Source: Deltaproteobacteria bacterium
Lineage (GTDB): Bacteria; Desulfobacterota; GWC2-55-46
NCBI GenBank assembly: GCA_038041305.1
Contig: JBBTGV010000013.1
Coordinates: 5,510-49,808, forward strand
Length of the DNA: 44,299 nucleotides
Reading direction: 5' to 3'
A model generated the notes under the pieces. That model had not been told where the DNA came from. It worked only from the letters and a program-made list of their open reading frames with translations, and ran no database searches. This document shows, piece by piece, positions 9,199-42,419 of the stretch; position 1 is the first letter of the stretch; every line of letters starts with the position of its first letter. The translations under genes and the position numbers were made by a program.

Positions 9199-9218
9199 AA
9201 CAATTATCCTTCTCTTAT

Positions 9219-14312: not shown

Positions 14313-14324
14313 GGTATTCCTTGT

Positions 14325-16158: not shown

Positions 16159-16202
16159 TGGACGCGCCCCCCGCAGATTTTACGCAAAACCCAGGCCATC
16201 GC

Positions 16203-16472: not shown

Positions 16473-16484
16473 TCTTATTCCCCC

Positions 16485-17264: not shown

Positions 17265-17268
17265 TTTG

Positions 17269-18044: not shown

Positions 18045-18062
18045 GGCTCTAACCTCCTTCCT

Positions 18063-19049: not shown

Positions 19050-19070
19050 GCTAAAAAATCCCCCGTGTTT

Positions 19071-19688: not shown

Positions 19689-19766
19689 GTCTGCTACCTC
19701 CTGACTTAAGATGAAAAAGCATGAGTTGCTTGCGATATTCAATATTAAAAGGCTATTTTAGCTTAT

Positions 19767-21668: not shown

Positions 21669-21703
21669 GACATACCCTCCTTTTTATCCTTATTGTTGTG
21701 TTT

Positions 21704-22366: not shown

Positions 22367-22409
22367 ATCGCCTCCTTTTCGCGGCCTAAGGCCGCTCTTT
22401 TAACGCCTT

Positions 22410-23795: not shown

Positions 23796-23819
23796 GTCAT
23801 TCTCCTGCAAAGTTATAAA

Positions 23820-23835: not shown

Positions 23836-23988
23836 TATGCGTCTAACTTATAAAATCACAATGATTTCAACTAATTGCACATGAAAGGCCAAGAAATGGT
23901 TAAAGGACTTTTAAAAAAATCAGGAAGGAACTTCCCCCTGCAACGGCATTATTTTCCCTGTTGCGGATAATTCTAATGGCGGGTTATG

Positions 23989-24822
23989 TCATTTCAAGGA
24001 AAGAAGGTATTTTAAGATCATTGCCTTGTGATTAAGTCTTTCAGGCACCCATGCGTATTTATCCGTATTTTCTGCGTCATACATAATATCAGGCGCGTTG
24101 TCATTGCACCTTGTCCAGAGCGCTCTGCCCTTTGCCGCGTTGTTAAGGAGTTCAATTGCATGGCCCTTGTAAGCGCCCTGCACATGGTCTTTTTGGGCCT
24201 GATACCTGAAATAACCGCACCTTATGTCTTTTATGAACCTTTGCGCCTCCCTCTGGTTCCAGAACGAATCATCAGAGGTCGGAAAATCCTTTAACGGCTC
24301 ATGGGTGTCGTTCTTCGTCGTGTTAAACCTGTTAGAAGGCCCCTCCCAGTCAAATATGAACTTCACGCCTTCAACGTCCTCCATCGCAAGCGCGCCCGTT
24401 GCTATTATGATTCCGATTGAAAAGGACAGTATCCTGACCCCCTCCACGTCCGGCAGCCCGGAAAAATGCCTTATCACGCCCAAAAGCTCCTTTTGGTGGC
24501 GCGGGCCCCAAAAATCCTCTTTTCCGGGGCTTTTCCCCCTCCCTGAAGGGTCGTAGTGAAGGACTATGTATCCGGCGGAGGCAATGTCTTTCGCGCTCAG
24601 GAAATCAAACCTGTCGTAGTCGGTGCCCGGGCTGTTTGCGCCCGGCACGATTATGACGCCCGGAAACCCGCCTTTTTCAACCGGCCTGTGCATGTGCGCG
24701 TAAAGCCCCGCGCCTCCGTCAATCCATGCCTCTTTGTACGCGGTCTTTTTCAACCTTATGTCCAAGAGGCCTGAAAGCTGAAGCCCTGCCTTAAGATTAT
24801 TTATCCTGTATATAAGCCCCAT
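23989..24822 (-). CDS. Alpha/beta-fold hydrolase (CocE/S15-like; possible esterase or deacylase)
   Basis: GVIIVPG, YIVLHYDPSGRGKSPG, nucleophile elbow LSFSIG and a candidate catalytic His in DHVQ. Starts 4 bp after the acyltransferase stop. Confidence 0.7.
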   Translation of the reverse strand: MGLIYRINNLKAGLQLSGLLDIRLKKTAYKEAWIDGGAGLYAHMHRPVEKGGFPGVIIVPGANSPGTDYDRFDFLSAKDIASAGYIVLHYDPSGRGKSPGKEDFWGPRHQKELLGVIRHFSGLPDVEGVRILSFSIGIIIATGALAMEDVEGVKFIFDWEGPSNRFNTTKNDTHEPLKDFPTSDDSFWNQREAQRFIKDIRCGYFRYQAQKDHVQGAYKGHAIELLNNAAKGRALWTRCNDNAPDIMYDAENTDKYAWVPERLNHKAMILKYLLSLK

Positions 24823-24826
24823 AAAC

Positions 24827-25744
24827 CTATTTTCTTATAAGGAGTCCCGGAGAAAACCTGTCAAGGAAGTGCAGGTACTGCGGGTATTCCGAGGCATACG
24901 ACTCAAGGCGCCTTACGAATGCCTCGGTCATGCGCCTTGGATCGTCCTCGGTCAAAGGCCTTTCTATTATTATCGTATAAAGGAACCTTGCCTCGCCCGG
25001 CGCTATAAACATGGGGAGTATCTTTGCGCCTGTTTTTTTAGCGAGGATTGAGGGGCCAAGGGGAAATAGCACGTCCTGCCCGAAAAACTTAAACGCCTCG
25101 TGTCTTCCGACATGCTTATCAGTGCCCGTGCCGTCGCCGGTTATCATTAAAACGCCGTTGTCCTTTAACCACCTGAACGCGCCCCTTAGGAACGCCTCCG
25201 CGTTTATCACCTCTGCCGGCATCTTTGACTCGTAGAAAAGCCGGAGCTTGAACGCGACATTCCTTCCTATCCAACTTAGCCCCTCGTCGCTCGGCAACCC
25301 TATCTGCTTCATCCGGTACCCGAGCCTCGCAAGCGCCACAAGCGGAAGGTGCACCGGGCCGAAGTGCCCGTGCACGAGTACCGCGCCGAGCCCTGATTTA
25401 AGCGCGCTGTCAAGGTGTTCAACGCCCTTTATGTTAACGAGCCTTTTTAACTCGTTTGCCCCAAGCCTCGGGAATATGAATATGAAAAGCCTGTCTATGT
25501 AATGGTTCCTTAAATACTCTCTTGATATTTTTCCAACGGTTTCAGCCGGGCAATCCTTTCTTATGCGGCCGAGGTTCTGCGAAAGGACCTTTTTTTTGCC
25601 CCTTGAGAGCGAATAATGCAGGTCTCCCATCAGCCTTAGGATTGAAATGGCTGTGCGTACAGGTGAGGCCAGTATAAGCCATCTCAAGGGATACCACACA
25701 AAAAGCCTTAGGATGTCCCGGCCAATGCCCTCTTTAACGGTCAT
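24827..25744 (-). CDS. LpxL/HtrB/PatA-family lipid acyltransferase (copy 3)
   Basis: IKGVEHLDSALKSGLGAVLVHGHFG, LKDNGVLMITGDG, FFG...GPSILAKKTGAKILP and YPQY motifs. Confidence 0.85.
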   Translation of the reverse strand: MTVKEGIGRDILRLFVWYPLRWLILASPVRTAISILRLMGDLHYSLSRGKKKVLSQNLGRIRKDCPAETVGKISREYLRNHYIDRLFIFIFPRLGANELKRLVNIKGVEHLDSALKSGLGAVLVHGHFGPVHLPLVALARLGYRMKQIGLPSDEGLSWIGRNVAFKLRLFYESKMPAEVINAEAFLRGAFRWLKDNGVLMITGDGTGTDKHVGRHEAFKFFGQDVLFPLGPSILAKKTGAKILPMFIAPGEARFLYTIIIERPLTEDDPRRMTEAFVRRLESYASEYPQYLHFLDRFSPGLLIRK

Positions 25745-25748: not shown

Positions 25749-27419
25749 TTATTGCGCTGAATAGTACTGGTTTAATTGGATATTAAACGAATTGACCCTG
25801 TCCGTGTCAAGCCCTGCGATGTTTCTCTGCTCATTCGGGTCAAGCGCGAGGTCAAAAAGCTCTGTCTCATCCCCTGTCTTTATAAGCTTATATCCGTCCT
25901 TTATCAACGATATTTTTTCCGAGTGGTCCCATGACCCCGCAATATAGGATATAACCGGCCTTCCCCCGAAATTGACATCCTGACCGTTTACCACCGGGAT
26001 CAGGGATTTGCCGTCAATTGAAAGCGAATCAACGTCTAAATTGAGATAATCAAGCACGGTGGGCAGCGCGTCAATCGTGCGCACATATTCATCAACAGAT
26101 AAACTCTCTGTCTGGCCCGGAAATTTTATAAGAAGCGGGACATGCAGGAGCGAATTATAGAGGTTGTCGCCGTGCGAAAAATAATTCGTGTGATCCGTCA
26201 TGTTCTCGCCGTGGTCTGCCGTGATTATTATCAGGGAATCGTCGTAAAGGCCCTTTGCCTTGAGCGATTCCAAAAGAACGCCGATGCTATAATCGGCGAA
26301 CCTTATCTCCGAGTCGTACGCCGCGACATAAAGCCTTGAGTCCTGATAAATGCCCTCTATGCTTAAAGGCTCCGCAATGCAAGCCTGCACATCAGAGTTA
26401 AGGTCTGTATACGCAATGCCATCGCTAAAGGAAACGACCTTGTTGCCCGAAGACGCATAGACATCGTCGTTCACGAAGTCATAGAGATAAGACCTCCCGG
26501 GGTCATAATCCCAATGAGGGCTTATCAGTCCGACAAACATAAAAAATGTCCTGTCTTTATTCGCGTCTGCGTCAAGCCATTTTACGGCCTTCTGAACGAT
26601 CTGCTGATCTAGGTTTGACCCGTCAACGATCTGAAACCTTTCGTCAAAATCAGCATCAAGGTACTCAACCAAAACATTCGTCTGAAGCGAGACCGTTGCA
26701 TAGCCTTTGTACTTCATGTGAATGGGCAGCGCCGCGCCCTCTTCAATCCTTTTCTTTTCATACACATTGTGTTCGTGATTGAACGCGAACTTGCCGAGAA
26801 GCATTGATGCGTATGAGGGATATGTCCACGCCGCCGGCGCAATGGCGTTTTTAAATACAACTGATTGCCCCGCGAATTCCGCGATATTGGGCGCCGTATC
26901 CCTTGCGTATCCCCATGCAGGGAGATGGTCAGCCCTTAAGGTGTCAACGACTATCATTACGACATTCGGGTTTGCCGTCTTTGAGCCCACCACAACCCTC
27001 TTTACGGAAGACACTGTTGAGGATACGTTGTTTGATGAATCCCTTACAAACGCATAAAGAGTCTTTTCCCCGTAGCCCTCGCTCAATTCATGGCTGATTT
27101 TAATTTCAAGCACGCCCACAGGCTCAATCGCCGCCCATCGGGCATCATCAGGCGAAGGCGCTTGAGGCTCCTCTGACACATAATAGCCCGTAATCGCCGT
27201 GTCATCCTCTGCACTTAAATCCACCGTGACTGTCCTTGAATCAATTGAGTCCTCGCCGTTTATGGTTAATGATAAATCCTGAGGCGGGGCCGCATCAATC
27301 TGGACATTTCCAAAATCATGCCCAACAGAGCAGCTGTTTAAGAAAATAAGGCCGATAATATGGAGAAAACAGATCGTTAATATTGAATTTATCCTTATGC
27401 CCAATGCCTTATAACACAT
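25749..27419 (-). CDS. Predicted lipoprotein, sulfatase-like alkaline-phosphatase-superfamily enzyme with an N-terminal beta-rich domain
   Basis: Lipobox-like FLNSC; PNVVMIVVDTLRADH, WTYPSYAS, YDSEI, IIITADHGE, HVPLLIK and ELFDLALDPNE motifs. Confidence 0.85.
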   Translation of the reverse strand: MCYKALGIRINSILTICFLHIIGLIFLNSCSVGHDFGNVQIDAAPPQDLSLTINGEDSIDSRTVTVDLSAEDDTAITGYYVSEEPQAPSPDDARWAAIEPVGVLEIKISHELSEGYGEKTLYAFVRDSSNNVSSTVSSVKRVVVGSKTANPNVVMIVVDTLRADHLPAWGYARDTAPNIAEFAGQSVVFKNAIAPAAWTYPSYASMLLGKFAFNHEHNVYEKKRIEEGAALPIHMKYKGYATVSLQTNVLVEYLDADFDERFQIVDGSNLDQQIVQKAVKWLDADANKDRTFFMFVGLISPHWDYDPGRSYLYDFVNDDVYASSGNKVVSFSDGIAYTDLNSDVQACIAEPLSIEGIYQDSRLYVAAYDSEIRFADYSIGVLLESLKAKGLYDDSLIIITADHGENMTDHTNYFSHGDNLYNSLLHVPLLIKFPGQTESLSVDEYVRTIDALPTVLDYLNLDVDSLSIDGKSLIPVVNGQDVNFGGRPVISYIAGSWDHSEKISLIKDGYKLIKTGDETELFDLALDPNEQRNIAGLDTDRVNSFNIQLNQYYSAQ

Positions 27420-27498
27420 TTGCCTTAAGTATGCTTATATCGGTTTTTTTATAGCGTATGCTACATTAAAAAACAAAAAAAATTTATGCCTTTAATGC

Positions 27499-28770
27499 CT
27501 ACTTGCCTTTTAACGCGAGCATGCCGTTAAAGAATCTTTCAATATATCTTGTCCTGGGGCTTGTATAATATCTCGGAAAAAGAAGGTTCTCTCCTTTTTT
27601 AACGAATCCCTCGGACAGCGCTATGTCGTAGAGCTTTGTATGGGGCTCTATCCTCATTGAATTGAATTCAAAGTGCACCCTGTTCTTCATTTTTCGCTTT
27701 GCCTTTAACGCGAATTTCAGCATCGCCAAAAAATCCTTGAAAGTCTGGCCCGGAGGATTTTTGAAAAAATTATAGCACAACTCAAATCCCTGTATTCCGT
27801 TCAAAACCTCAAACGTGCGAATTATGTCGCTGTTCGTGATGTTTTTCTCCAATTTTTTCAAGGCCTTGTCCCCGAATCCGTCAGGCGACAAAATTATCTT
27901 TGTGCAGCCCGCCTTTATCGCAAGATCTATAAAGTCTTTTCTAATCCCCGCCTCAGAGAACCAAGCAGACCATCTGACCTTAAGGCCCCTTCTTAAAATC
28001 TCCCTCATTATCTCATCGGCATGTTTCATCGGAATATTAAACACAGAATCAACGAATGTGAACTCCGCAATGCCGTGAGATGAAAGGGCCTCTATCTCGT
28101 CCGCTATGAGCCTCGGGCTCCTTAAGCGGTAGCTCCTTCCGTTTAAGAACCCGTATATGCAGTATATGCACTTAAGGGCGCACCCCCTTTTCGTCTCAAT
28201 GCCAATCGCATCCGGGGTTGCCTTGTACGCTGATGCCGGGAATATCGTCCTGTCCGGCAGGGTGGTCCTGTTCAGGTCCGCCTGCGGCGGCGCGCCTGAG
28301 AACATGACATGGCCGTCCTGCCGGTAGAAAACCCCTTTTACCCTGAGAGGCGCGTCAAGGTTGTCAAGTAGCCCCGCGATGATGTTTTCGCCCTCAAGAA
28401 AAACCCCGGCGTCAATAGTCTCCTCATCATCCATTATCTCTCTCGCGTACATTGAAAACCCGGAGCCGCCTACGATTATCCTGCCTGCAGAGGCCTGCCT
28501 AATCGCCTTCAGCGCGTCCTTGAAGAATTTATAATAAAACACGACCTTTCTCTTGTTCGTTGAGTCAATGTTTCTTAGGGATACGAGGACGGCCTGCGGG
28601 GAAAACTCGCTTAAAACGCGCCTCAGCTCGTCATAAGGGTTTTTGTGGAGGTTTAAGTCAATGCCCTTAAGCTCGTGTTTTTTTATGCAGGCCGCGATTG
28701 ACGCAAGGCCGATCGGGTAAACAAGCGGCTCGGCCCCGCCGAGATAGGACTGTACGAGCAGAACCCTCAT
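27499..28770 (-). CDS. Cobalamin-binding radical SAM enzyme 4 (TsrM/lipid-cluster-like motifs)
   Basis: YPIGLA, SLRNID and VGGSGFS in the B12 domain; ETKRGCALKCIYC; FVDSVFN. Confidence 0.9.
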   Translation of the reverse strand: MRVLLVQSYLGGAEPLVYPIGLASIAACIKKHELKGIDLNLHKNPYDELRRVLSEFSPQAVLVSLRNIDSTNKRKVVFYYKFFKDALKAIRQASAGRIIVGGSGFSMYAREIMDDEETIDAGVFLEGENIIAGLLDNLDAPLRVKGVFYRQDGHVMFSGAPPQADLNRTTLPDRTIFPASAYKATPDAIGIETKRGCALKCIYCIYGFLNGRSYRLRSPRLIADEIEALSSHGIAEFTFVDSVFNIPMKHADEIMREILRRGLKVRWSAWFSEAGIRKDFIDLAIKAGCTKIILSPDGFGDKALKKLEKNITNSDIIRTFEVLNGIQGFELCYNFFKNPPGQTFKDFLAMLKFALKAKRKMKNRVHFEFNSMRIEPHTKLYDIALSEGFVKKGENLLFPRYYTSPRTRYIERFFNGMLALKGK

Positions 28771-30275
28771 GCAGCGGCCTTAGCAGGATGGAGCAGCCTT
28801 TTTATAATATTATTCAGGGCCTTAAGGCCGATATAAAGGTACTTGAACACAGGCCTCATGGGGGCGCTGTTAAGGATATTGACCAGAGGCGGGTTTACGA
28901 GGATTTTCAGCAATGCGCTTGGAAAACGCCCGTTCTTTGAAAGCGTCATGAGGAGATTCAGGTAGTTCGGCGCCCTCATGGTGTAGCTCTTCTCGTAGAT
29001 CTGTTTTTTCTCGTCGGTTATAAGCCCGTCCCTCTTTGCATCCTCGTAGAGCTTTGTCCCCGGATAAAGCACAAGCGAGAACGGCTGCAGGTGAAACGGC
29101 TTCGGTATCTCGGCAATGAGCTTAAGGGAGTCTATCTTGTCCGCATCCGTCTCATAGGGCACGTCAAGGATAAAGTCATAGCTCGGCGGAAACATTTTAT
29201 CCTTATGCCTGTTTATGATTGAAAAGGCCTTTTTAAGCCTCTCGTTGTCCATTTGCTTTCTGTTGAATATCTCCTGAATCTTCTTGCTCCCGGTCTCCAC
29301 CCCCATCTGGAGATAGATAAGCCCGGCGTCCACGAGCCTCTCCATCTTCTCCTCGGACATGGTCATGGGGCTTGCAAGGCATGAGAACGGAAGGTTTATC
29401 TCCCTCTTGTACACGCCGCAGAACTCGTCAAGGCTCTGCCTGCTCCTCGCGAAAAACGCATCGTCGGAAATCCACACAAACCCCACATAGGGCATGGTCT
29501 CCTTCACGCGCTTAAGCTCCTGAATGACATGGCCGGTGCTCCTCCATCTGAGATAATTCTGGTTGTTGTACATGCCCTTCAGCGTGTCGTTTATGCAGTA
29601 CGTGCATTTGTGCGGGCATCCCCTGCCCGTCATGGTCTGGTACCCCGTCTTCTTAAGGTAATGGGAGACAGTGCCCTCCTCAAGTATCTTTTTCTGAAGC
29701 CCGTATGTAAGGGGCTGTATCCGCCCGGCGTAAAGCACATGGTGGCCGTTAAGGCTCCAGTCCGGGGCAGGATAGACGTCAAGGTCTTTGACAAGCGGCA
29801 TGGGCGCGTTTTTTATAATCCTACCGTTGTGCCTGAAATACATGTTGCCCACGTCAAGGTACGGCTCTTTATTCTCCATCCTCCGGACAAGTTCAAGCAT
29901 CGCGTCTTCCCCGTCGCCTACGCAAACCATGTCCGCATGCTCAAGACACTCAACCGGCCTTATCGTGGGATGTATGCCTCCCCACAGGACAGGGGTCTTA
30001 AGGCGGGCCTTAATCTTTTTCGTTATCTGGAGCGCCCCCTCATAGAAATTCGTCATGAGGGTTATGCCGACGATGTCCGAGTCCCTGCAAAGCGGTATTA
30101 TGCCTTCAAGCACATTGTCGTCGTAGCGCTTAACGCCGAAGACAAGATTGTCCCCGAAAGGGTCTGGTATGAATATAATGCTTGTTGAATGGCCGTGGGC
30201 CTTGAGATGCGCGGATATCGTGCGTATCCCGAATGCGGTTATGTCCGGATAAGGCGAAATAAAGGTTATCTTCAT
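28767..30275 (-). CDS. Cobalamin-binding radical SAM enzyme 3
   Basis: WGGIHPT, GDGE, RGCPHKCTYC, ISDDAF and MGVETGS motifs. Confidence 0.92.
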   Translation of the reverse strand: MKITFISPYPDITAFGIRTISAHLKAHGHSTSIIFIPDPFGDNLVFGVKRYDDNVLEGIIPLCRDSDIVGITLMTNFYEGALQITKKIKARLKTPVLWGGIHPTIRPVECLEHADMVCVGDGEDAMLELVRRMENKEPYLDVGNMYFRHNGRIIKNAPMPLVKDLDVYPAPDWSLNGHHVLYAGRIQPLTYGLQKKILEEGTVSHYLKKTGYQTMTGRGCPHKCTYCINDTLKGMYNNQNYLRWRSTGHVIQELKRVKETMPYVGFVWISDDAFFARSRQSLDEFCGVYKREINLPFSCLASPMTMSEEKMERLVDAGLIYLQMGVETGSKKIQEIFNRKQMDNERLKKAFSIINRHKDKMFPPSYDFILDVPYETDADKIDSLKLIAEIPKPFHLQPFSLVLYPGTKLYEDAKRDGLITDEKKQIYEKSYTMRAPNYLNLLMTLSKNGRFPSALLKILVNPPLVNILNSAPMRPVFKYLYIGLKALNNIIKRLLHPAKAAA

Positions 30276-31867
30276 GCTGTCTTGGACGTGGATTTAATGA
30301 AAAACCTGTAGAGCCTCGGGAAATCCCCGGTTAAGAGCGACCTTATCCCCTTGTATAACATTATAAGGAATTCCCCGGCATTATTGAGGCCCGTGTAAAG
30401 GTTGGACAAAGACCTCCGGTCAAACAATCCAAGGAAAACCCCCCCGGACAAAAACCTCACAACACACCTCGGAAAATATGAAAACCCAGCGAGATACATA
30501 AGGAAATTAAAATAGCTTCCTTTCGGCATATGCAGATGCTTTGAATATATCTCCCTCTGCTCGTCGGCCTCGTTCTTTATTATGCCGTCCCTTTTCGCCA
30601 TGTGATAAAGCTCTGTGCCCGGGAAGCACACAAGGGACGCCCTCTTTAGCCAGAACGGCCTCGGAAGCCTTAAAACGAGATTTATGGTCTCAACGACATC
30701 ATTTGAGCTTTCCCACGGGTTGTCAAGTATCACATGGTAGCACGGCGGATATATCCTTTTCCTGTATCTGTGGAATATTTCAGCGGCCCTTAAGATCGTC
30801 TCTGAAGGCACCTTTCTTTTATAAAGGTCTTTCGCGGCAACGCTTGTTGACTGTATGCCCATCTCAACGAACGCGAGGCCCGCGTCAACAAGGGCCTCCA
30901 CCTTTTCCTCGGTAACGGTGCCGGGGCTTGCCTGAATATGGAACGGGAGGTTGATAGCGGTCTTATACGCCTTTGCAAACTCCGATATGTCCTCGGCGGA
31001 CCTTGCAAGGAAGGTGTCGTCAAAAAGAAATATGCTTTCCACGAAAGGCATCTCCTTTTTCACGGACATCAGCTCGCCCATTACGTGGCCGGTGGATCTG
31101 CGCCTTAGGTACTTCTGCCCGCCGTACATGTCGGCAAGGGTCTTCTCGGCGCAGAACGTGCAGTGATGAGGGCACCCCCTTGTCGTCATTGTCTTGTATG
31201 AAAGGGTTCTTTTGTACGCGTCGCTGAAGCTGCCCTCAACGTGCGGCTCAAGCGGGAACGACCTTTTCAGAAGCTCCTTTGTCATGGGCTCTATTGACCC
31301 CTTGACGTTGTCGTAGATAAAATGCCCGTCCGGGCCGAAGTCGTAATAAGGAAGCTCGTCAAGGTTATGTATTAGGGGCCTTAGCGGGTTCTTCGCCACA
31401 TGGCCGTCCTTCTTGCCCCAGATGTTTCTTATGTCGTGATACGGCTCGTTTCTCTCAAGCCTCCCTGCAAGCTCCAGAAGCGCCTCCTCCCCTTCGCCGA
31501 GGCAGACCATGTCCGTAAACATCAGGGTCTCAAGAGGCGCGACCGTGGGATGAATGCCGCCTGCTATCAACGGGACGTCCTTCATGGCCGCCTTTATCGC
31601 GCCGCAGAGCTGAACCGCCCTGTCAAGGTAATTGCTCATGAACGATATGCCGACGAGGGAGGACCCCCTGCACAGCTCAACCACCTCATCAAGTATCTTT
31701 TTTTCGTACTGATACTTAAAGCCTTCGGTGTGCTTGAACTTCTCAACGCCGCCGGGCAGGAATATCAGGCGCACATCCTTTTTGTGCCTCTTTAAATATG
31801 CCGACAACGCCCTTACCCCGAATGCCGCGACATCGGGCGGGGTGGGGGCCACAAGCGTTATCCTCAT
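30272..31867 (-). CDS. Cobalamin-binding radical SAM enzyme 2
   Basis: AGGIHPT, GEGE, RGCPHHCTFC, FDDTF and MGIQS motifs. Confidence 0.92.
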   Translation of the reverse strand: MRITLVAPTPPDVAAFGVRALSAYLKRHKKDVRLIFLPGGVEKFKHTEGFKYQYEKKILDEVVELCRGSSLVGISFMSNYLDRAVQLCGAIKAAMKDVPLIAGGIHPTVAPLETLMFTDMVCLGEGEEALLELAGRLERNEPYHDIRNIWGKKDGHVAKNPLRPLIHNLDELPYYDFGPDGHFIYDNVKGSIEPMTKELLKRSFPLEPHVEGSFSDAYKRTLSYKTMTTRGCPHHCTFCAEKTLADMYGGQKYLRRRSTGHVMGELMSVKKEMPFVESIFLFDDTFLARSAEDISEFAKAYKTAINLPFHIQASPGTVTEEKVEALVDAGLAFVEMGIQSTSVAAKDLYKRKVPSETILRAAEIFHRYRKRIYPPCYHVILDNPWESSNDVVETINLVLRLPRPFWLKRASLVCFPGTELYHMAKRDGIIKNEADEQREIYSKHLHMPKGSYFNFLMYLAGFSYFPRCVVRFLSGGVFLGLFDRRSLSNLYTGLNNAGEFLIMLYKGIRSLLTGDFPRLYRFFIKSTSKTA

Positions 31868-33366
31868 GACTTTACTATCCTCTTCAATGTCCTCACCCTT
31901 ATAGATTTAATGAGTTTTTTAACCGGGTAGAGAAGGTCGTTTTTTATATACGGCTTTATCCTCATCCACCTTACCCTTGCCGAGCACTTGTAATCAAAGA
32001 CCCACTGGGTTATGCCTATGACCTTTTCCTCAAACTCCTTTGGAGGGATGTTGTTGTTGAAATAATGCATTGGCCAGAACCCGAAGGTCCTCCAGTCAAT
32101 ATCGGCCGGCACAAGGCCGAGCCTTTTGCAGTCCTCAAGAAGCGGGCTGCCCGGTATGGGTTCAAAGATGTTGAAATTGATGTTCTCCGTCTTTATGCGC
32201 TTCATGACGCTGAATGTCTCGTCAATGTCGGCCATGGTCTCCTCCGGGAATCCGGCCATGAAGTTCGCGCCCGACGGTATGTCGTACCTGTATAAAAGGT
32301 CAAACGCCTCAACCACCTTGCCGATGTTTACGCCCTTGTTTATCTTCTTGAGCATCCTCTCGCTTCCGCTCTCTATCCCGATCGTTATGCCGCAGCAGTC
32401 CGCCTCCTTAAGGAGCTTGACCACGTCCTCGCTTAATATGTCGGCCCTCGTCATCGTGTCCCACGACACCTTCAGGTCCGCGCTCATGAGATGGTCGCAG
32501 AGGTCGGTAACCCGCTTTTTGTTTATCGTAAAGTTGTCGTCAAGGAACGAGACGACGTTTTTGTTGTAAAAGCGCGTTACATGCCTTATCTCGTCAAGCA
32601 CGTTCTCATACGACCTGAACCGCACCGTCTTTCTCGTGAATGTCGGGGACGAGCAGTAGCCGCACCTGAAGGGGCAGCCCCTGTTAGTCATTATGCCTAT
32701 GCGCTCCATGTGCTTGAACGCCTCAGGGAACATCGCCAGATGGTGCGCCGGAAACGGGAGCGCGTCAAGGTCTTCTATCAGCTCCTGGTCCCTGTTGTGC
32801 ACGACCTTCCCGTTCTCAACATAGGAGATCCCCCTTACGTCCTTAAGTCCGGCCCGGCCCGGCCTCAGGGCAGATAAAAGCTCAACCGCGGTCTTCTCGC
32901 CCTCTCCCCGCGCGACAATGTCAACCACGCCGTAGCTTAAGACGTCGTCGGGCAGGAATGTGGCGTGGTGTCCCCCCCACACGACGACCCTGTCCTTTCT
33001 CCCTTCCTTCGCGAGCGTGCTGAACTTTACCGCCGAACCCACCTCCGGGCTAAGCACCGTAAAACCCACCACGTCAGGGTCAAAATCCTTCAGTACGGAC
33101 ATTACCTCCTGCCACACCGGATGCGCGTTGTTCTTCAAGGAGTCCTGATACTCCTTGAACTTCTTCGCCCGCTCCTTAAGCATGGCTACCTCGTCGGGCA
33201 TAACCCCGGCGGTTATCCCGACCGTTGCATCCGCGTTCCAGACCCTGACCTCATGGCCCGCCTTCTCAAGCACGGCCGCTATGTATCCCGCGCCGAGCGG
33301 AAAATACGCGGACGGCCTGTAGCCCCGCAGCCTATGATATGGCGGCCTTACGAGCAATACCTTCAT
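31864..33366 (-). CDS. Cobalamin-binding radical SAM enzyme 1
   Basis: PLGAGYIAA, WGGHHAT, GEGE, RGCPFRCGYC, DDNF, GIESGS and GFPEET motifs. Confidence 0.93.
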   Translation of the reverse strand: MKVLLVRPPYHRLRGYRPSAYFPLGAGYIAAVLEKAGHEVRVWNADATVGITAGVMPDEVAMLKERAKKFKEYQDSLKNNAHPVWQEVMSVLKDFDPDVVGFTVLSPEVGSAVKFSTLAKEGRKDRVVVWGGHHATFLPDDVLSYGVVDIVARGEGEKTAVELLSALRPGRAGLKDVRGISYVENGKVVHNRDQELIEDLDALPFPAHHLAMFPEAFKHMERIGIMTNRGCPFRCGYCSSPTFTRKTVRFRSYENVLDEIRHVTRFYNKNVVSFLDDNFTINKKRVTDLCDHLMSADLKVSWDTMTRADILSEDVVKLLKEADCCGITIGIESGSERMLKKINKGVNIGKVVEAFDLLYRYDIPSGANFMAGFPEETMADIDETFSVMKRIKTENINFNIFEPIPGSPLLEDCKRLGLVPADIDWRTFGFWPMHYFNNNIPPKEFEEKVIGITQWVFDYKCSARVRWMRIKPYIKNDLLYPVKKLIKSIRVRTLKRIVKS

Positions 33367-34330
33367 TTATTTCCCCCTTTGCGAAAAAGGCGCTGTCCCC
33401 TGCTGAAGCCTCCATGAATGTCCTTAACGCAAGGAACCCAACATAATGGCACGGGTATTTAAGGACATACTCCTCAAGCCTTTTCGCGAAAAACATCGTA
33501 TTCTCCCTTACCGCGTCATGTTCCGTGTTTGAGGCCGCGTTAACCGCAATCGGCGGCTCAATTATAAGCCTATGTGTTCCGTTGCCCTGTCTGACCATAA
33601 AACACGGCAACACCTCGCAGCCTGTCCTCAACGCAATGGAGACGGCCCCGGTTGAAAACCTCGCAAGGCGGCCGAGGAAAGGGACCGTTACCCTGTCTTT
33701 CCCGCCCCCGCCGTCTATCGCGATTCCCAAAACCTCATTTCTCTTAAGGCACTGGAAGGCCTCTTTCATTGAACCGAAGATATTTATGTGGGTCACGGGC
33801 AGGCTCGCCTCATGCGCCCAACGCATCTTAAGAAGCGCCTTATGTATGCGGCTGAACCTCCTGTTGGGCATCTTTTCAATCCACACGGTTGCAGGCGCGC
33901 TTAACTGGCTCATGGCGTATCGCCTGTGCCCGATCGCCGGCATTATCATCTGGTTTGAGCCGAAGTGCGCGAAGAGGAGCATCGCGCCCCTGCCCTTTTT
34001 CAACGCATCGTCAAGGTGATTCAACCCGTCGCACCCGACGAAACAATCAATATTGCCGGGATTAAGCCTCGGAAACAGCATCACCTCAAGCTCATGGCGC
34101 ATAAGGTTTCTAAACGCCCTTTTTACGACGCCGGCGGCATCCTCGGTCCGGCACGGAAGCCTTTTTGCCTCTGCCTCAAACGCGGTTCTCTTTCCGGACA
34201 TCAGCCTGTACGCGATTGAACCCGCAACGCCGGCCAAAAAGTAAGCGGCCCTCAATGGGAGCGCCCATGCAATCCATTTCAAGGGATACATGTAGGCAAT
34301 CCTTAATATGTCCTTAAGAAGCTCTTTCAT
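33332..34330 (-). CDS. LpxL/HtrB/PatA-family lipid acyltransferase (copy 2)
   Basis: GLNHLDDALKKGRGAMLLFAHFG, LKRNEVLGIAIDG, VPFLG and YPCHY motifs. Likely start ATG 34330. Confidence 0.85.
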   Translation of the reverse strand: MKELLKDILRIAYMYPLKWIAWALPLRAAYFLAGVAGSIAYRLMSGKRTAFEAEAKRLPCRTEDAAGVVKRAFRNLMRHELEVMLFPRLNPGNIDCFVGCDGLNHLDDALKKGRGAMLLFAHFGSNQMIMPAIGHRRYAMSQLSAPATVWIEKMPNRRFSRIHKALLKMRWAHEASLPVTHINIFGSMKEAFQCLKRNEVLGIAIDGGGGKDRVTVPFLGRLARFSTGAVSIALRTGCEVLPCFMVRQGNGTHRLIIEPPIAVNAASNTEHDAVRENTMFFAKRLEEYVLKYPCHYVGFLALRTFMEASAGDSAFFAKGEINEGIARKAAIS

Positions 34331-35252
34331 GCCCTGCCTTGCCGTAATCAAGAAAAAGCGGATTTACCTTGTCATGACCAGCCCTTATGCGTTCAAACAT
34401 CAGGTTGGGGGCATAGAAATGCGGGTATTTAAGGAAGTACCCTTTAAACACCCCAAGGAATCTCTCAACGCCGTCATCCGGGCTGCTGTATTCAATGGGC
34501 CTGCCTATTGTCAGCGTATGCACGCCGTTGTCGCCCCTTACGATAAAAAGAGGCATGATCGGGGCGCGGCACGACTGCGCTATCCTGAATATGCCGTTTG
34601 AAAGAAGCATGGGCCTGCCCAGAAAATCGTATTGCCTCATGTTGGCCCCAAGCCTGCCGTCCACAGCGCACAGAAGCACCCCGTTGTTCTTAAGGGCCTC
34701 GTGCGCCCTCTTGCCGAGCCTGTCGGCGATTATGATCCGTGCGGGCATCTTGTCCCCGATATGCCTTCTTCTCCTTCTTACCATGCCTGCGAGCAACCCT
34801 ATCTTGTCGGGGCCCTGCTCGGACGGCCCGGCCTCCGCGAGCTGGCAGACCGAATACCCCTTGTATCCGAGCGCCGGGATTACGAGGAGGTGGTTAGAGA
34901 AGTGCATTAGCGCGAGCACCGCCCCCCTTCCCCTTGAAAGCGCGTTGTCAAGGTAATCCAGCCCCTCAAAATCAACGATTGAAAGCATCCTCTTTTTCCG
35001 GTCAAAAAAAAGCCTCTCCTCCTCGTCCTTGATCATTGAGGCGTAAGCCTTTTTAGCCATGCCTTTATACTCGTCATCGGAAAGCCCGCCTTGAAGCAAT
35101 CTCAGTTCATCCCGCATCAGAGCGCCCCTGCCGGACCTCACCGCAAGACCGCCAAGCATGCCGCACACGCCCAACACGAGCATTTTAGGCAGGACATATA
35201 TGAACCATCTAAGGACACACCATACGAACAAAAGCGCCAGATTCTTTATCAT
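34314..35252 (-). CDS. LpxL/HtrB/PatA-family lipid acyltransferase (copy 1)
   Basis: FEGLDYLDNALSRGRGAVLALMHFSN, LKNNGVLLCAVDG, FLG and YPHFY motifs. Confidence 0.85.
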   Translation of the reverse strand: MIKNLALLFVWCVLRWFIYVLPKMLVLGVCGMLGGLAVRSGRGALMRDELRLLQGGLSDDEYKGMAKKAYASMIKDEEERLFFDRKKRMLSIVDFEGLDYLDNALSRGRGAVLALMHFSNHLLVIPALGYKGYSVCQLAEAGPSEQGPDKIGLLAGMVRRRRRHIGDKMPARIIIADRLGKRAHEALKNNGVLLCAVDGRLGANMRQYDFLGRPMLLSNGIFRIAQSCRAPIMPLFIVRGDNGVHTLTIGRPIEYSSPDDGVERFLGVFKGYFLKYPHFYAPNLMFERIRAGHDKVNPLFLDYGKAGHERAS

Positions 35253-36895
35253 TCCATGTAGCCTAAGGATTTCAGCTTGTCTGTTATCTCTTTTTCCTCG
35301 CTGTCGGAAAAGCCGGAGGCCTTTCCCTCTGAACTCACGTCCTGTTTTGCGTATTTAATCGGGTTTTTGGACGCGTAATCCTCTGTTATCGCGCAGATTG
35401 GAACCCTCCCGTCAAGGCCCTCCGGGATATTCGCGCCCGTGAGATAAAGTATCGTCGGCGTAACGTCCTCAACCGATATCTTTTCAAGCGTCTTGCCGCG
35501 CTCCACTGCCGCGCCCGATGCGACGAATATGCCTTCCATCTCATGCCTGCCGGACCACCTGTGCGGGATAAAGAGGGCATCGGTGTATTTGCTCCCGAAG
35601 AAGAAAAACTCGTTCGGCGCTATCACCTGATAGCCCGATGAGCATATGGGTATGAGGTCAGGCGCGTTTTGGAGCGCGTCCCCGGAATAGACATCCCTTG
35701 AGCAATGCACCGCGTCAATCACATTTACGCCTTCCTCCGCGTCCTTTAAATCAAGAAGCCTTTTTTTAATCTCCCCGGCAACGGCGCCGTATCTATCATC
35801 AGGCACATTGTCCCTGTTTATGAAGATCCCTCCGGCCACCCCCTCCGAGAACGCGGTTGTTCCCTCCCAGTCAATAAGCCTTATGAACGCGCTAAGCTCA
35901 TCGCTGGCCCTTTCGGGCATCCCCTTGCCGGAAGGGGACGGCTTAAGGTTATTCAGCACAGACTCTGGTATTATCCTTTTGATTGATTTTTTTATGCCTG
36001 AAACCACCTTTGAGCGGGCGATCGGCCTGAAGGCCTCGCCAGGGTCCTGCTTAAGCCTCAGATACCCGTTTTTTATGAGCCAGTTGTTAAGGAAAAACGC
36101 CTTTTTAAGCGGCCCGCTTCCGTGGTCCGAGACCATTATGACGGTAGGATCCCCGGGCGCGGCGTCAATGAGCCTGCCGAGCGTCTTGTCAAGCCTTTCA
36201 TAAACCTTTGCGATTGAATCGCAATACCTCGCGTGGTCGGGGTGCGCCTTGTCAAGATACTTCCAGAAAAAATGCTGCACCCTGTCCGAGGCCATAAAGG
36301 CGACGAAGAAGAAATCAGGGTTAAACTTCTTTTGGAGGTAAAGCGCCGTTTTTTCCCTGTAATCCACCATCTCAAGGATTGACTTCAGGTATCCTTCCGG
36401 TTCATTAACCTGCCTGCATTCAAGCAGATACTTGCCGCAGTTCTTTTCAATCTCCTTAAACAACTCCACGGGGTGCATGAAATCCGGCGCGCCTTCGGGC
36501 GAAAACATCCCCGGTATGCAGAACCCGTTCACCCTGTCGGGCGGATATGTAACGGGCACATTCATGACCCCTACGCTTAACCCGGCCTCGGACAGGAGCG
36601 TCCATACCGGCTTAACGCGCCTTGCCCCGGCGTTCACGAACCGCACCCTCAATTCCTGCCTGTTAAAGCCCATGGCGTCAAATATGCCGTGTCTGCCGGG
36701 ATTCACCCCCGTTGAGATGGTCGTCCACGCAACGGGCGTAAGCGGCGGTATCGTTGAGGTGAGCCTGCCCCATGAGCCGTTCTGCATAAGGCGGGCGAAG
36801 TTCGGCAGACGGCCCTGCCTTGCCAGCGGCAACAATATGTCAAATGTCGCGCCGTCCCAGCCTACCATCAGTATCTTTGTTTTGTTCACGATCAT
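35249..36895 (-). CDS. Alkaline-phosphatase-superfamily nucleotide pyrophosphatase/phosphodiesterase-like protein
   Basis: GWDGAT, STIPPLTPVAWTT (Thr nucleophile), TGVNPGRHGIFD, DRVQH, SDHG, SGRH and C-terminal KLKSLGY. Likely start ATG 36895 with an AAGGA RBS; no signal peptide evident. Confidence 0.88.
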   Translation of the reverse strand: MIVNKTKILMVGWDGATFDILLPLARQGRLPNFARLMQNGSWGRLTSTIPPLTPVAWTTISTGVNPGRHGIFDAMGFNRQELRVRFVNAGARRVKPVWTLLSEAGLSVGVMNVPVTYPPDRVNGFCIPGMFSPEGAPDFMHPVELFKEIEKNCGKYLLECRQVNEPEGYLKSILEMVDYREKTALYLQKKFNPDFFFVAFMASDRVQHFFWKYLDKAHPDHARYCDSIAKVYERLDKTLGRLIDAAPGDPTVIMVSDHGSGPLKKAFFLNNWLIKNGYLRLKQDPGEAFRPIARSKVVSGIKKSIKRIIPESVLNNLKPSPSGKGMPERASDELSAFIRLIDWEGTTAFSEGVAGGIFINRDNVPDDRYGAVAGEIKKRLLDLKDAEEGVNVIDAVHCSRDVYSGDALQNAPDLIPICSSGYQVIAPNEFFFFGSKYTDALFIPHRWSGRHEMEGIFVASGAAVERGKTLEKISVEDVTPTILYLTGANIPEGLDGRVPICAITEDYASKNPIKYAKQDVSSEGKASGFSDSEEKEITDKLKSLGYME

Positions 36896-36911
36896 TTCCT
36901 TAATATAACGA

Positions 36912-38357
36912 TTACCATTCTTTTTTCCATATAAGCGACGCAAAGGCGGACAACTCGTTTTTCTTGAAAATGCCCGCCGTATAAAGCACGCCGAAATACA
37001 TTATCGCCCCAAGCACGGCGGCAAGGGCCAATGAGGCTGTATTCGGCCCCTTTATCAATAATACCACAGCTCCGCTTAAAATTCCCGCAAGACATGTCTT
37101 TGTCAGTACTTTGTCAAAAGACGCCTTAAAACCGGTATTTGACAGGAAATAGAGCGAAAAAAGGAATAAACCCGTGTAAGAGACAAGCGCGATGTACGAT
37201 GCCGCCATGTACCCGTATTTAGGTATAAAGAAAAGCCCAGCGAGTATGTTTACGGCAAGCATGAGCCCCGCGTAAAACACGATGTATCTCTGCCTGTTCA
37301 TGGCAACGAGCACCACGTTTGACACCATATCCATTGAAAGCGGTATGATCGCCCATGACACGACCCTAAGGGCCGGGACCGCGCCGAGGTATTTGTCGCC
37401 AAAGGCGATCCTGATAATCTCCTCCGCAAAAAGGGAAAAATACATCGCGATCAGGAAGTTCAGCACGAAAAAGTACCTGAATATCTTTTCATAGAAGTCA
37501 AACGCCTTTTCAGGCTCGTTGTGCTCCAGCCTCGCGATAACCGGGAACATCGCCGCGATCAGGGCCGCCGGCAGGATCTGCACCTGAAGAACCGTATTAT
37601 GCGGGGCCTGAAAAAACGCGACGGACTCAAGCGAACCGAGCCACTTGAGCAGGAGCACGTTTATCCTTGAAAGATTCTGGCAGAGGAATACACCTATCCC
37701 GACTATTGCGGAATCCACAAAAAACTTTCTCAGCACCTCCCTCTTGATGTAAAGCTCAGGCCTTACGAAGCCCTTGAAAAGTATGATGGAGGTCAATGCG
37801 AACTGTATAAGGTTTGCCGCGGCTGAGGCCGCTATAATGCCAGTCAGCCCAAGGTCAAGCCCTACTGCGGCCAATATAAAGCCCGTAAGGGACAGGTAGT
37901 ACACAAGGGCTATTGCCGGCTCGTAAAACATCTTTTCATAGGCCTGGAATACCGCCCTGCCGAGCATGCTGAACGCGAGAAAGGTCTCGGATGCGATTGC
38001 GACTATAAACGGGATCGTCGCCTCGGCCGAGAGGTCCATGAATTTTATAGACAAGAAAAGCGCGGCAACCGCGGTGGCGGTCAGGTACGACCTTAGCCGC
38101 AGCGCCACCCCGAGGTAATGCCCCGCGTTCTCCCTGTCCCTTGCGATGTCCCTTATAAGGACCTGCTGTATCCCGAAGTAGGAAAGGGCCATAAGCGAGG
38201 TCACGAACGCGATGATGAAGGTATACTCGCCGTACGCCAGGACGGAAAGGTAGCGGGCGACTATAATGAGGATGAAAAAAGAGGACGCCACCTGCACGCC
38301 TTTTGCCGCGAGTATGAAAATTGAATTTTTTAATATGCTTGAGTTTGTTGAAAGCAC
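36912..38357 (-). CDS. wzx: Wzx-type flippase (MOP/PST family)
   Basis: ILKNS...IVARYLSVLAYGEY, about 12-14 hydrophobic segments, MFPVIARL, FGDKY and FIPKYG motifs. Confidence 0.88.
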   Translation of the reverse strand: MLSTNSSILKNSIFILAAKGVQVASSFFILIIVARYLSVLAYGEYTFIIAFVTSLMALSYFGIQQVLIRDIARDRENAGHYLGVALRLRSYLTATAVAALFLSIKFMDLSAEATIPFIVAIASETFLAFSMLGRAVFQAYEKMFYEPAIALVYYLSLTGFILAAVGLDLGLTGIIAASAAANLIQFALTSIILFKGFVRPELYIKREVLRKFFVDSAIVGIGVFLCQNLSRINVLLLKWLGSLESVAFFQAPHNTVLQVQILPAALIAAMFPVIARLEHNEPEKAFDFYEKIFRYFFVLNFLIAMYFSLFAEEIIRIAFGDKYLGAVPALRVVSWAIIPLSMDMVSNVVLVAMNRQRYIVFYAGLMLAVNILAGLFFIPKYGYMAASYIALVSYTGLFLFSLYFLSNTGFKASFDKVLTKTCLAGILSGAVVLLIKGPNTASLALAAVLGAIMYFGVLYTAGIFKKNELSAFASLIWKKEW

Positions 38358-41640: not shown

Positions 41641-41696
41641 CCAATCCCCGCCCTTTAAGGCTAAAATTTTCCGCCTTGCCACGTCCGTCTCTCGCG

Positions 41697-42419
41697 TCAG
41701 CCCAGCAGACTCGTCGGGCAAGTAAACGCCATTGCGTCCGCCCTGCCGGCGCCGGCGAGTTTTTCAATGCACAGACAGGCATCTGCCATCGGCGCAATGC
41801 CGTTAGTGAACCTGTGCGTATCGCTTGCGATCACATGGCCGAGGCCGTTCTCTATAAGCTTTTTCGCGGCGTTTTTTACGGTCCTGCCGTATGCCCCCAA
41901 CAGGCTTCCCGCGTTAACCTGCAGGAGCATCCCGTTATCCGCGAAGGGTTTCGCGGCCCTGAAGTCCTGCATTACGTCCGGGCACCTCTCCGGGTGCGCC
42001 CATATGGGGACGATGTTGTTCGCCAGAAACTCAAAAACAACGCTTTGGGCATACGGGGGAATGCCGGAGAGCGGCATCTCAACGAGTATGTGTCTGCCGA
42101 GCCCGCCTATGGTTATCCTCTTTTCCCTCTTCACGAACTGCGGCAACCCCACCTCAAGAAGCACCTCCGCGCCGAGGACCAATTCAAGGCCCGCGGCCTT
42201 GAGCGCGAGCGCGGCCTTAAGCTCGTTAAACTTGTTCTCAACAATGTCAAGATATGCGCTTCTGATGAGATCAAGCGAGTAATGCGGGGTTGCCACCACT
42301 GCCTTTGCGCCGTCCTCCAATGCCTTTACGGCTATGGCTATTGATTCCTCCCTGTCCCTCGCGCCGTCGTCAATGCCGTGGAGTATGTGCGTATGTATGT
42401 CAACGAAACTCAAAGCCAT
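41697..42419 (-). CDS. PHP-family protein-tyrosine phosphatase (CpsB/CapC/YwqE type)
   Basis: DIHTHILHGIDDGA, ATPH, GAEV, AHPER and ASDTH motifs; adjacent to wzc. Confidence 0.93.
   Translation of the reverse strand: MALSFVDIHTHILHGIDDGARDREESIAIAVKALEDGAKAVVATPHYSLDLIRSAYLDIVENKFNELKAALALKAAGLELVLGAEVLLEVGLPQFVKREKRITIGGLGRHILVEMPLSGIPPYAQSVVFEFLANNIVPIWAHPERCPDVMQDFRAAKPFADNGMLLQVNAGSLLGAYGRTVKNAAKKLIENGLGHVIASDTHRFTNGIAPMADACLCIEKLAGAGRADAMAFTCPTSLLG

Follow-up and report, generated by a model that had tools for sequence, protein, structure and literature searches.

Introduction

Class B (cobalamin-type) radical S-adenosylmethionine (SAM) enzymes are known from antibiotics, cofactors, chlorophylls, hopanoids and archaeal lipids. 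Most of the characterised members are methylases, and many that are encoded in tandem mature ribosomal peptides or small natural products. Here we analysed a stretch of 44,299 nucleotides (the window) from a deltaproteobacterium, in which four consecutive genes, rSAM1 to rSAM4, by sequence encode enzymes of this class and by their layout belong to one same-strand operon with genes for a Wzx-type flippase, acyltransferases and a tyrosine kinase. On balance, and with modest confidence, we take the four proteins to tailor an envelope glycoconjugate that is exported by a Wzx/Wzy-dependent pathway.

In OxsB, TsrM and TokK, base-off, His-off cobalamin is described as being held by a Gly-Gly pair on strand beta-4 and a Gly-Glu pair on helix alpha-5 (PMC9204698). 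Lipid-anchored substrates have precedents among B12-binding radical SAM enzymes: the hopanoid enzyme HpnJ, for which contraction of the glucosamine ring in bacteriohopanetetrol glucosamine is proposed, and MoeK5, the moenomycin enzyme (PMC9204698, PMC13459092). Archaeal glycerol dialkyl glycerol tetraether methylases and a desaturase are further precedents for lipid substrates (10.1101/2025.10.20.683597). The family TIGR04072, named "lipid biosynthesis B12-binding/radical SAM protein", is presented as a candidate of the anammox ladderane cluster, paired with a phytoene-desaturase-like flavoenzyme (PMC13459092). The same source, a 2026 review of lipid-modifying radical SAM enzymes, describes radical SAM tailoring of non-isoprenoid lipids as so far limited to, or proposed for, ladderanes and jawsamycin, and the words lipopolysaccharide and polysaccharide do not occur in it.

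On the export side, the systems closest to the present locus are the Psl and group 1 capsule loci. The Psl exopolysaccharide operon of Pseudomonas encodes the hydrolase PslG. Among acyltransferases, PatA is reported to move palmitate to a mannose of a membrane glycolipid, phosphatidylinositol mannoside, at the membrane surface (PMC4792965). Both the enzyme class and the export pathway are thus known. A full-text literature search on B12-binding radical SAM enzymes together with lipid A, lipopolysaccharide (LPS), polysaccharide or exopolysaccharide returned nothing relevant, supplements and subscription journals, where a description could exist, lying outside it. Within that search we found no description of a conserved multi-enzyme B12-dependent radical SAM part of a bacterial Wzx/Wzy surface-polymer pathway, nor of its conserved combination with dedicated acyltransferases.

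Results

Four adjacent genes encode predicted class B radical SAM enzymes

The window lies on contig C13 of the source genome (G000), whose 1.4-Mb assembly is 69% complete. The four genes are intact, consecutive open reading frames (ORFs) on the minus strand that encode B12-binding radical SAM proteins: rSAM1 (31864..33366, 500 amino acids (aa)), rSAM2 (30272..31867, 531 aa), rSAM3 (28767..30275, 502 aa) and rSAM4 (27499..28770, 423 aa). At each of the three junctions (31864-31867, 30272-30275 and 28767-28770) the sequence ATGA provides a 4-bp stop/start overlap. PF02310 is found at the N-terminus of all four proteins (41-69 bits against a Pfam cut-off of 32.1) and so is PF04055 further on (62-91 bits, cut-off 29.5), the two domains spanning residues 20-163 and 227-385 in rSAM1. 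Each protein has a single CxxxCxxC motif, namely CPFRCGYC at residue 231 in rSAM1, CPHHCTFC at 232 in rSAM2, CPHKCTYC at 220 in rSAM3 and CALKCIYC at 197 in rSAM4, and the rSAM2 cysteines C232, C236 and C239 are invariant in an alignment of 27 rSAM2/3 sequences. Pfam and the motif scan agree here with a first-pass annotation of the window, which had described four proteins of 423-531 aa with an N-terminal B12 domain, these motifs and 4-bp overlaps between neighbours.

A Gly-Gly pair followed 23-28 residues on by a Gly-Glu pair is present in each protein (131-155 in rSAM1, 103-125 in rSAM2, 99-123 in rSAM3 and 101-128 in rSAM4), and none of the four translations contains DxHxxG. An AlphaFold (AF2) model of rSAM2, the one protein of the four used for fold comparison, had a mean predicted local distance difference test (pLDDT) score of 91.2 with a 27-row alignment. 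Its top folds in the PDB were TsrM, MgmA, OxsB, AprD4, TokK and CysS (TM-scores 0.56-0.63, identity 13-17%), with a probability of 1.00 for TsrM, MgmA, OxsB, TokK and CysS. Like these five class B enzymes, the window proteins combine an N-terminal Rossmann B12 domain with a radical SAM core, and share with them a single CxxxCxxC, the GG and GE motifs and the lack of DxHxxG. They differ from them in that the known substrates, which are tryptophan, nucleosides, carbapenems, carrier-bound acyl units or protein, are not glycan-pathway intermediates, and that the identity of rSAM2 to them is so low. By sequence, then, all four products are cobalamin-type (class B) radical SAM enzymes, with cobalamin use predicted from PF02310, the GG/GE motifs and the fold; since the genome encodes CobS, cobalamin is probably available in the cell.

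Only eight PF02310 matches occur in the whole assembly and four of them are these neighbours, so that their clustering is not a matter of chance. Pairwise BLASTP aligned rSAM2 with rSAM3 over 500 residues at 41% identity, and the two can be regarded as paralogues, whereas the remaining pairs reach 20-25%. A quick IQ-TREE phylogeny (76 rows after removal of duplicates, Shimodaira-Hasegawa-like approximate likelihood-ratio support only, midpoint root) was made from the four proteins and ORFs of at least 330 aa from 30 loci that aligned over at least 250 residues at E <= 1e-15. It separated clades for rSAM4 (18 rows, support 100), rSAM2 (15 rows, support 99), rSAM3 (14 rows, support 99) and rSAM1 (4 rows, support 99), with rSAM2 and rSAM3 together in a 45-row clade (support 99). 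The three types recognised at first pass (rSAM1, rSAM2/3 and rSAM4) were therefore recovered as separate supported clades, and on this phylogeny rSAM1-4 represent four orthologous groups. The rSAM1-position genes of several loci fall in other clades, which makes rSAM1 the variable member of the set.

Many homologues align to each of the four proteins at 100% coverage. A hydrophobic-segment scan detected no transmembrane (TM) or signal segment in any of them; their last 80 residues are basic (net charge +7 to +12), and in rSAM2 and rSAM3 this tail is also more hydrophobic than the remainder of the protein. We also noted a dip in G+C content at 25749-28770, covering rSAM4 (0.487) and the downstream gene Sulf556 (0.475, with 0.54 at third codon positions) against 0.529 for the window; the 1-kb bin 27001-28000 has 0.424.

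The genes lie in a predicted operon with a Wzx/Wzy export set

From the window end down to position 23989 all genes lie on the minus strand, in the order kinase, CpsB, Wzy_C, unk574, Wzx, PDE564, AT312, AT339, rSAM1-4, Sulf556, AT305 and unk277, with intergenic gaps of -38 to +79 bp and ATGA overlaps at four junctions of the cluster. A terminator-like hairpin (23921..23940, minus strand; a 7-bp stem then ATTTTTTTAA) follows 49 bp past the stop codon of unk277 and is the sole intergenic terminator-like site of the cluster. Terminator-like sites numbered 22 in the window against 22.9 expected in shuffled sequences, and only the position of this intergenic hairpin was used; promoter-like sites numbered 22 against 16.6 expected, a total not above shuffled expectation.

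The first four genes of known type supply the Wzx/Wzy core set. A Wzc-like tyrosine kinase/co-polymerase with P-loop AAA_31/CbiA domains (42434..44299) has its 5' end cut by the contig end; its orthologue in the relative G013 has 724 aa with Wzz and GNVR domains. It is followed by a CpsB-type PHP tyrosine phosphatase (41697..42419; PF19567, 146 bits), a Wzy_C/O-antigen-ligase-family membrane protein with 10 TM-like segments (40171..41721; PF04932, 52 bits) and, after unk574, the Wzx-type flippase with many TM segments (36912..38357; PF01943 and PF13440). PDE564 (35249..36943), an alkaline-phosphatase-superfamily enzyme (PF01663, 134 bits) in which no hydrophobic segment was seen, precedes the acyltransferase genes, a position that is conserved in related loci.

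The product of unk574 (38423..40147) is a candidate secreted or anchored PslG/GH39-like glycoside hydrolase. It has no Pfam match even at E 5, and its AF2 model, from a five-row alignment, is weak (mean pLDDT 55, core 70-90), with top folds GH39 5jvk and PslG 5bx9/4zn2 (E 2e-12 to 2e-11, TMt 0.51-0.61). An eight-row alignment was dropped for its unrelated rows (18-19% identity) and the five rows were kept. The protein has an N-terminal hydrophobic segment and ends in a Gly/Arg-rich stretch followed by the Cys-rich tail CGDGVCGPVEREKGVCPEDC; orthologues in the G013, G063 and G031 loci have N-termini about 100 aa longer. In its Wzx, Wzy_C, Wzc-like kinase, CpsB and PslG-like fold, and in the Wza and WbaP-like primer of its relatives, the cluster resembles Psl and group 1 capsule loci, from which it differs in its small number of glycosyltransferases and in its three LpxL-like acyltransferases and four to five B12-binding radical SAM genes.

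Downstream of rSAM4, Sulf556 (25749..27419; PF00884, 130 bits) encodes a sulfatase-family protein that is probably an exported lipoprotein, to judge from an N-terminal hydrophobic segment with a lipobox-like LNSC. Formylglycine sulfatases carry the signature C/S-x-P-x-R; this motif is missing and DTLRADH stands at the metal/nucleophile site, and a role as a formylglycine sulfatase was rejected. Sulf556 is found in the relatives G012 and G022 and missing from most related loci; given this restricted presence, it may be a later insertion. After AT305 the operon closes with unk277 (23989..24822), an alpha/beta-hydrolase-like protein with weak hydrolase-family matches and orthologues, 59-60% identical, in six loci. 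A link to exosortases suggested by its match to hydr1_PEP (E 8e-4) was dropped, as PF09721 was not found in the 69%-complete genome.

The neighbourhood recurs in other genomes and metagenomes

With a presence threshold of E <= 1e-90 for rSAM2/3-type and E <= 1e-30 for AT305-type genes, the former occurred in 7 of 41 close relatives (G000 counted) and, patchily, in 10 of 401 sampled genomes of the phylum. AT305-type genes occurred in 11 of the 401; nine genomes had both types, one the radical SAM gene only and two the acyltransferase only. We then scored with the cluster proteins 14 genome loci (L012, L014-L026) around rSAM2/3-type genes. A PF03279-like acyltransferase was present in 12, rSAM4 in 11 and a GT9 gene in 7, and most also hold PDE564, Wzx or Wzy_C. 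The two loci in which the fetched stretch held no acyltransferase belong to G332 and G091, the latter having two such genes 3-6 kb outside. The recurrent order was PDE, AT339, rSAM2, rSAM3, rSAM4, (Sulf556), AT305, unk277, GT9. AT339 stands directly upstream of rSAM2-type genes in most related loci and AT305 lies 3' of rSAM4 in many. Among 78 metagenome loci we examined the 20 of at least 5 kb ranking among L027-L060; nine hold both an acyltransferase and rSAM4, including all five whose best match exceeds 600 bits. L030, near-identical to the G401 locus, is not independent of it. Wzx, Wzy_C and LpxL/PatA-like acyltransferases thus recur around the orthologues in other genomes, which is in line with the envelope context that the first-pass annotation had proposed to check by genome neighbourhoods.

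Across loci rSAM3 is the most conserved member (57-75% identical). The homologues carry source labels of Nitrospirae, including Ca. Magnetominusculus, Desulfatirhabdium butyrativorans (rSAM2-type P0027 and rSAM1-type P0266), Ca. Electrothrix, Magnetococcales and Thermodesulfobacteriota and, for rSAM1 at about 37% identity, Ca. Brocadia. rSAM2 is 67-71% identical to P0016, P0022, P0023, P0026, P0027 and P0031 (Nitrospirae, Ca. Magnetominusculus, Desulfatirhabdium), while some genomes of its own family have rSAM2 copies only about 45% identical, a pattern which suggests that the cassette moves between phyla. A partner-family scan of 51 of 71 unassigned ORFs (the other 20 being short, in the far flank or duplicates) found phytoene-desaturase-like flavoenzymes, SPASM radical SAM proteins, GT4, GT2 and PMT_2 as recurrent partners in the relatives.

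Contig C75 probably continues the cluster

The kinase gene is cut by the end of contig C13, which coincides with the window end. In G013, the genes upstream of the kinase encode a nucleotidyltransferase-WbaP-like fusion that passes the TIGR03025 cut-off, a fatty-acyl-CoA-ligase-like enzyme, a dehydrogenase that passes the cut-off for IolM, scyllo-inosose 3-dehydrogenase (519 bits against 450), and Wza. In G012 and G022, unk277 is followed by GT9, a DUF362-ferredoxin, a B12-binding radical SAM protein, GT2, a molybdopterin oxidoreductase, a second PF01663 enzyme, CysD and CysN. Contig C75 of the source genome (L105:1-12780) carries GT2, GT9, a DUF362-ferredoxin, an HpnJ-like B12-binding radical SAM gene, GT2, a molybdopterin oxidoreductase (best match formate-dehydrogenase-alpha-like, below cut-off), PF01663, CysD and CysN, and terminates with the first 264 residues of the WbaP-like fusion. 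In gene order this block matches what lies downstream in the cluster of G012 and G022 (61-89% identical), and in G063 a C75-like PF01663 gene stands directly before primer, ligase, dehydrogenase, Wza, kinase and CpsB. From this collinearity, C75 probably joins the window end across an unassembled gap, and the locus would then hold five B12-binding radical SAM genes. The first-pass annotation had overlooked both the truncation by the contig end and this probable fifth gene. Primer, glycosyltransferases and Wza are all present in the G013 and G063 loci; in G000, the N-terminal 264 aa of the primer, the GT9 and the two GT2 genes are on C75, and a search of the 69%-complete assembly gave no close Wza.

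Ligase-like and IolM-passing genes stand between primer and wza in several carriers (L011:12812-15459 in G013; L110; L026) and were not found in the incomplete G000 assembly; the pair is a hint of cyclitol chemistry. CysD and CysN in turn hint at a sulfated product, and no sulfotransferase was seen.

The acyltransferases are accessory enzymes

Three proteins of the operon, AT339 (33332..34351, 76 bits), AT312 (34314..35252, 62 bits; TM-like segment at residues 2-38) and AT305 (24827..25744, 58.5 bits), pass the PF03279 cut-off of 22.3 bits as divergent LpxL/PatA-family acyltransferases, and none of the three reaches an NCBIfam equivalog cut-off. The only solved sequence relatives of AT305 are PatA structures (E 2e-7). 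HX4D/E is the acyltransferase motif; the cluster proteins retain its His, but the acid at +5 is absent. In the 41 relatives, one high-scoring PF03279 copy (170-223 bits), the housekeeping LpxL, lies away from the cluster in 36, two more have a copy at only 112-124 bits, and 38 match at all. The copy of G000 is on contig C85 (187 bits, against 58-76 bits for the cluster proteins). Cluster acyltransferases score 51-84 bits and are nearly confined to cluster-bearing genomes; as a low-scoring, patchily distributed group in the presence of a separate housekeeping LpxL, they are accessory and not the lipid A enzyme. As a separate observation, G003 (C9:66131-70663) contains no rSAM2/3 and yet has an AT305-type gene (44% identity) about 3 kb from a more distant B12-binding radical SAM gene, so the pairing of the two enzyme types may extend beyond this cassette.

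These results bear on the rival that survives best, which is LPS remodelling. In that case extra acyl chains would be put on lipid A or core by the acyltransferases, and a heptose-type core sugar by GT9; the Wzy_C protein would be a WaaL-type ligase, and the radical SAM enzymes would act on core sugars or on the acyl chains of lipid A. LpxL/LpxM belong to PF03279, WaaC/WaaF to GT9 and WaaL to Wzy_C; the GT9 of C75 best matches heptosyltransferase models (123 bits against a cut-off of 170), Sulf556 has weak NCBIfam matches to EptA/LtaS-type transferases, and rSAM4 is related to the lipid-cluster family TIGR04072. Nevertheless, besides the canonical LpxL elsewhere in G000 and in nearly all relatives and the distinctness of the cluster copies, Wzc, CpsB, Wza, the WbaP-like primer and the PslG-like hydrolase mark Wzy-dependent exopolysaccharide or capsule loci, and lpxA, lpxC, lpxD, lpxB, lpxK and kdtA are not in the cluster. 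We therefore consider LPS remodelling unlikely.

The four proteins fall below the cut-offs of characterised families

The sequence comparison with characterised class B members was made through the hidden Markov models of their families. In the NCBIfam search every match of the four proteins stayed under its curated cut-off. For rSAM1 the best were BchE (TIGR02026, 179 bits against 481) and HpnJ (TIGR03471, 162 against 577.6). rSAM2 reached 88 bits on HpnJ, and rSAM3 99 bits on TIGR04072 and 96 on HpnJ. rSAM4 was nearest to BzaD (TIGR04385, 270.9 bits against 450) and TIGR04072 (232.4 against 360), aligning end to end with both (E 2e-80 and 8e-69 respectively). None of the four reached the cut-offs of the PhpK/Sden_1168 P-methylases, ApyD, HpnR, MgmA, TsrM-type or KedN5 models. 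By sequence, TsrM, OxsB, TokK, CysS and MgmA gave no match to rSAM2 at E <= 0.01. Homologue searches returned hundreds of full-length relatives with generic names only, and a characterised orthologue sought in NCBIfam, in the PDB by sequence, in the homologue searches and, for rSAM3, in the ESM Atlas likewise yielded only generic names. None of the four proteins thus groups with a characterised enzyme.

The likeness to TIGR04072 and BzaD has its limits in the gene context: some related loci hold a phytoene-desaturase-like flavoenzyme, as described for part of the ladderane candidate cluster, but the present cluster has neither FabF or acyl carrier protein genes nor a benzimidazole pathway context. 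The same applies to HpnJ, the best or near-best curated match of rSAM2 and rSAM3, since all scores in the cluster lie under its cut-off and the neighbours here are GT9, DUF362 and GT2 instead of hpn genes. Aligned over its full length, the fifth enzyme (C75) reaches 416 bits on HpnJ, also below cut-off, and an HpnJ-like gene of this type occurs in all five cluster-bearing genomes searched. Squalene-hopene cyclase was absent from four of these five genomes, two of the four being 100% complete, and a hopanoid role for the fifth enzyme was rejected.

A second rival holds that some or all of the four proteins are not cobalamin-dependent methylases: with a vestigial Rossmann domain, they would carry out AprD4- or HpnJ-like dehydration, deoxygenation or rearrangement of sugars or cyclitols together with the cluster dehydrogenase. 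AprD4 is the only PDB sequence match of rSAM2 (E 3e-5), is also among those of rSAM1 and rSAM4 and appears among the top folds; the HpnJ scores of rSAM2, rSAM3 and the fifth enzyme, and the IolM-passing dehydrogenase of the relatives, point the same way. Against it, all four proteins keep the GG and GE motifs and pass the PF02310 cut-off, their scores on the AprD4 model are low (31-91 bits against 500), and CobS is encoded. This alternative we judge slightly less likely again than LPS remodelling.

Flagellar and peptide-maturation roles

Between the end of the cluster and fliK there are 178 bp, about 20 kb of genes for flagella and chemotaxis share its strand, and in G013 fliK-flgD-flgE lies about 4 kb beyond the last acyltransferase of the cluster (L013:4455-7275). 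A flagellar role directly upstream of fliK-flgD-flgE, for example in a sheath or flagellar glycan, is nonetheless very improbable: between the two gene sets lie the terminator-like hairpin and a promoter-like site, the cluster continues into GT9-DUF362-rSAM5-GT2 or other glycan genes in G012, G022, G063, G401 and others, no flagellin-glycosylation families were seen, and G000 and G013 belong to the same family, so that the shared position may be inherited. That the four enzymes mature a ribosomally synthesised peptide or small natural product is barely credible, as the weak matches to the peptide methylase models ApyD and TIGR03975 fall far under their cut-offs, gaps of at most 79 bp provide no space for a precursor gene, and every conserved neighbour is a glycan or acyl-transfer gene, with no peptidase, transporter or polyketide synthase/non-ribosomal peptide synthetase families.

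Discussion

The strand and short gaps shared with wzx, the recurrent Wzx/Wzy_C/acyltransferase neighbourhood and the absence of any characterised enzyme that clusters with them make an envelope glycoconjugate the likely target of the four radical SAM enzymes. In this qualified form the cell-envelope substrate put forward in the first-pass annotation stands; its further idea, an assembly line of distinct modifications that makes the surface structure B12-dependent, is a hypothesis. We are much less certain of the specific chemistry than of glycoconjugate tailoring as a whole.

The substrate, chemistry and order of steps that we propose would be as follows. A WbaP-like phosphoglycosyl transferase, encoded in the relatives and by its N-terminal part at the end of C75, would start a polyprenyl-phosphate-linked sugar unit, which GT9 and GT2 enzymes would lengthen and the divergent LpxL/PatA-like acyltransferases would O-acylate at the cytoplasmic face of the membrane. 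rSAM2, rSAM3 and rSAM4, with the lineage-variable rSAM1 and the HpnJ-like fifth enzyme, would then functionalise unactivated carbons of the sugar or acyl groups. Wzx would flip the unit, the Wzy_C protein would polymerise or ligate it, and the Wzc/CpsB (and Wza) machinery would export the product; the exported Sulf556 and the PslG-like hydrolase would act outside the cytoplasm. Because none of the four proteins has a TM or signal segment, they would work in the cytoplasm, before Wzx; as soluble enzymes that require SAM and low-potential electrons and have basic C-terminal tails, they should do so at the membrane face. The likeliest substrate is a polyprenyl-linked acylated sugar unit, since the constant partners are acyltransferases of a sugar-acylating type and GT9.

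For the reaction itself, C-methylation through methyl-cobalamin is our first guess, since most characterised class B enzymes methylate. Ring rearrangement, possible for the HpnJ-like enzyme in particular, desaturation and dehydration are live alternatives in view of the HpnJ, AprD4 and TIGR04072 affinities. In its most specific form, the proposal would be a cassette of anaerobes of several phyla in which a cascade of four to five B12-binding radical SAM enzymes and dedicated PatA/LpxL-like acyltransferases decorate an exported, maybe sulfated, glycoconjugate with acyl or cyclitol groups that are C-methylated, cyclised or rearranged; we offer this version tentatively and consider it well short of probable.

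Several points weigh against the tailoring role. The only PDB match of rSAM2 by sequence, AprD4, is not known to use cobalamin, and the nearest named families include other non-methylases as well (BchE, HpnJ). As no protein of the four reaches a curated cut-off, the chemistry comes solely from the prior that class B enzymes are mostly methylases. LpxL-, GT9- and Wzy_C/WaaL-family genes fit work on LPS core or lipid A equally well. The window contains no glycosyltransferase or priming transferase genes, and the link to C75, which would supply them, is one of synteny in relatives and not of assembly. The co-occurrence counts overstate the support, since kin genomes are not independent of one another, and 11 of the 20 metagenome loci, all with distant homologues (<=463 bits), have no acyltransferases.

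If tailoring of an exported glycoconjugate is correct, some anaerobes of several phyla, by source label Nitrospirae, Thermodesulfobacteriota including Desulfatirhabdium, cable bacteria and Magnetococcales, would make a surface polymer or glycolipid whose structure depends on cobalamin and on oxygen-sensitive C-H chemistry. Should fatty-acyl groups be the targets, radical SAM enzymes would here be tailoring the non-isoprenoid lipid chains of a saccharolipid. The cassette offers four orthologue groups that are uncharacterised and have a defined genetic context, and at least one of its carriers is in culture, which makes the question testable.

A second glycan-type cluster with radical SAM genes lies outside the cassette. 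Contig C63 of G000 (L106:3146-10430) encodes a SPASM radical SAM protein, thiamine pyrophosphate-dependent E1 alpha and beta subunits, GT2, a B12-binding radical SAM protein of 495 aa, a GT9-like protein and another radical SAM protein; similar B12-binding radical SAM matches (about 29-30% identity to rSAM2, open frames of about 495-500 aa) occur in most of the 40 relatives. On the other side of the hairpin, fliK-flgD-flgE occupies 20022-23810 of the window, flanks that differ in other carriers. The region 446-19742, on the same strand, holds motB, motA, cheB, cheA, cheZ, two cheY-like genes, cheR, a fliA-type sigma factor gene, flhG, flhF, flhA, flhB, fliR, fliP, fliN, fliM and fliL, and a gene for a 643-aa HEAT-repeat protein lies inside the che genes.

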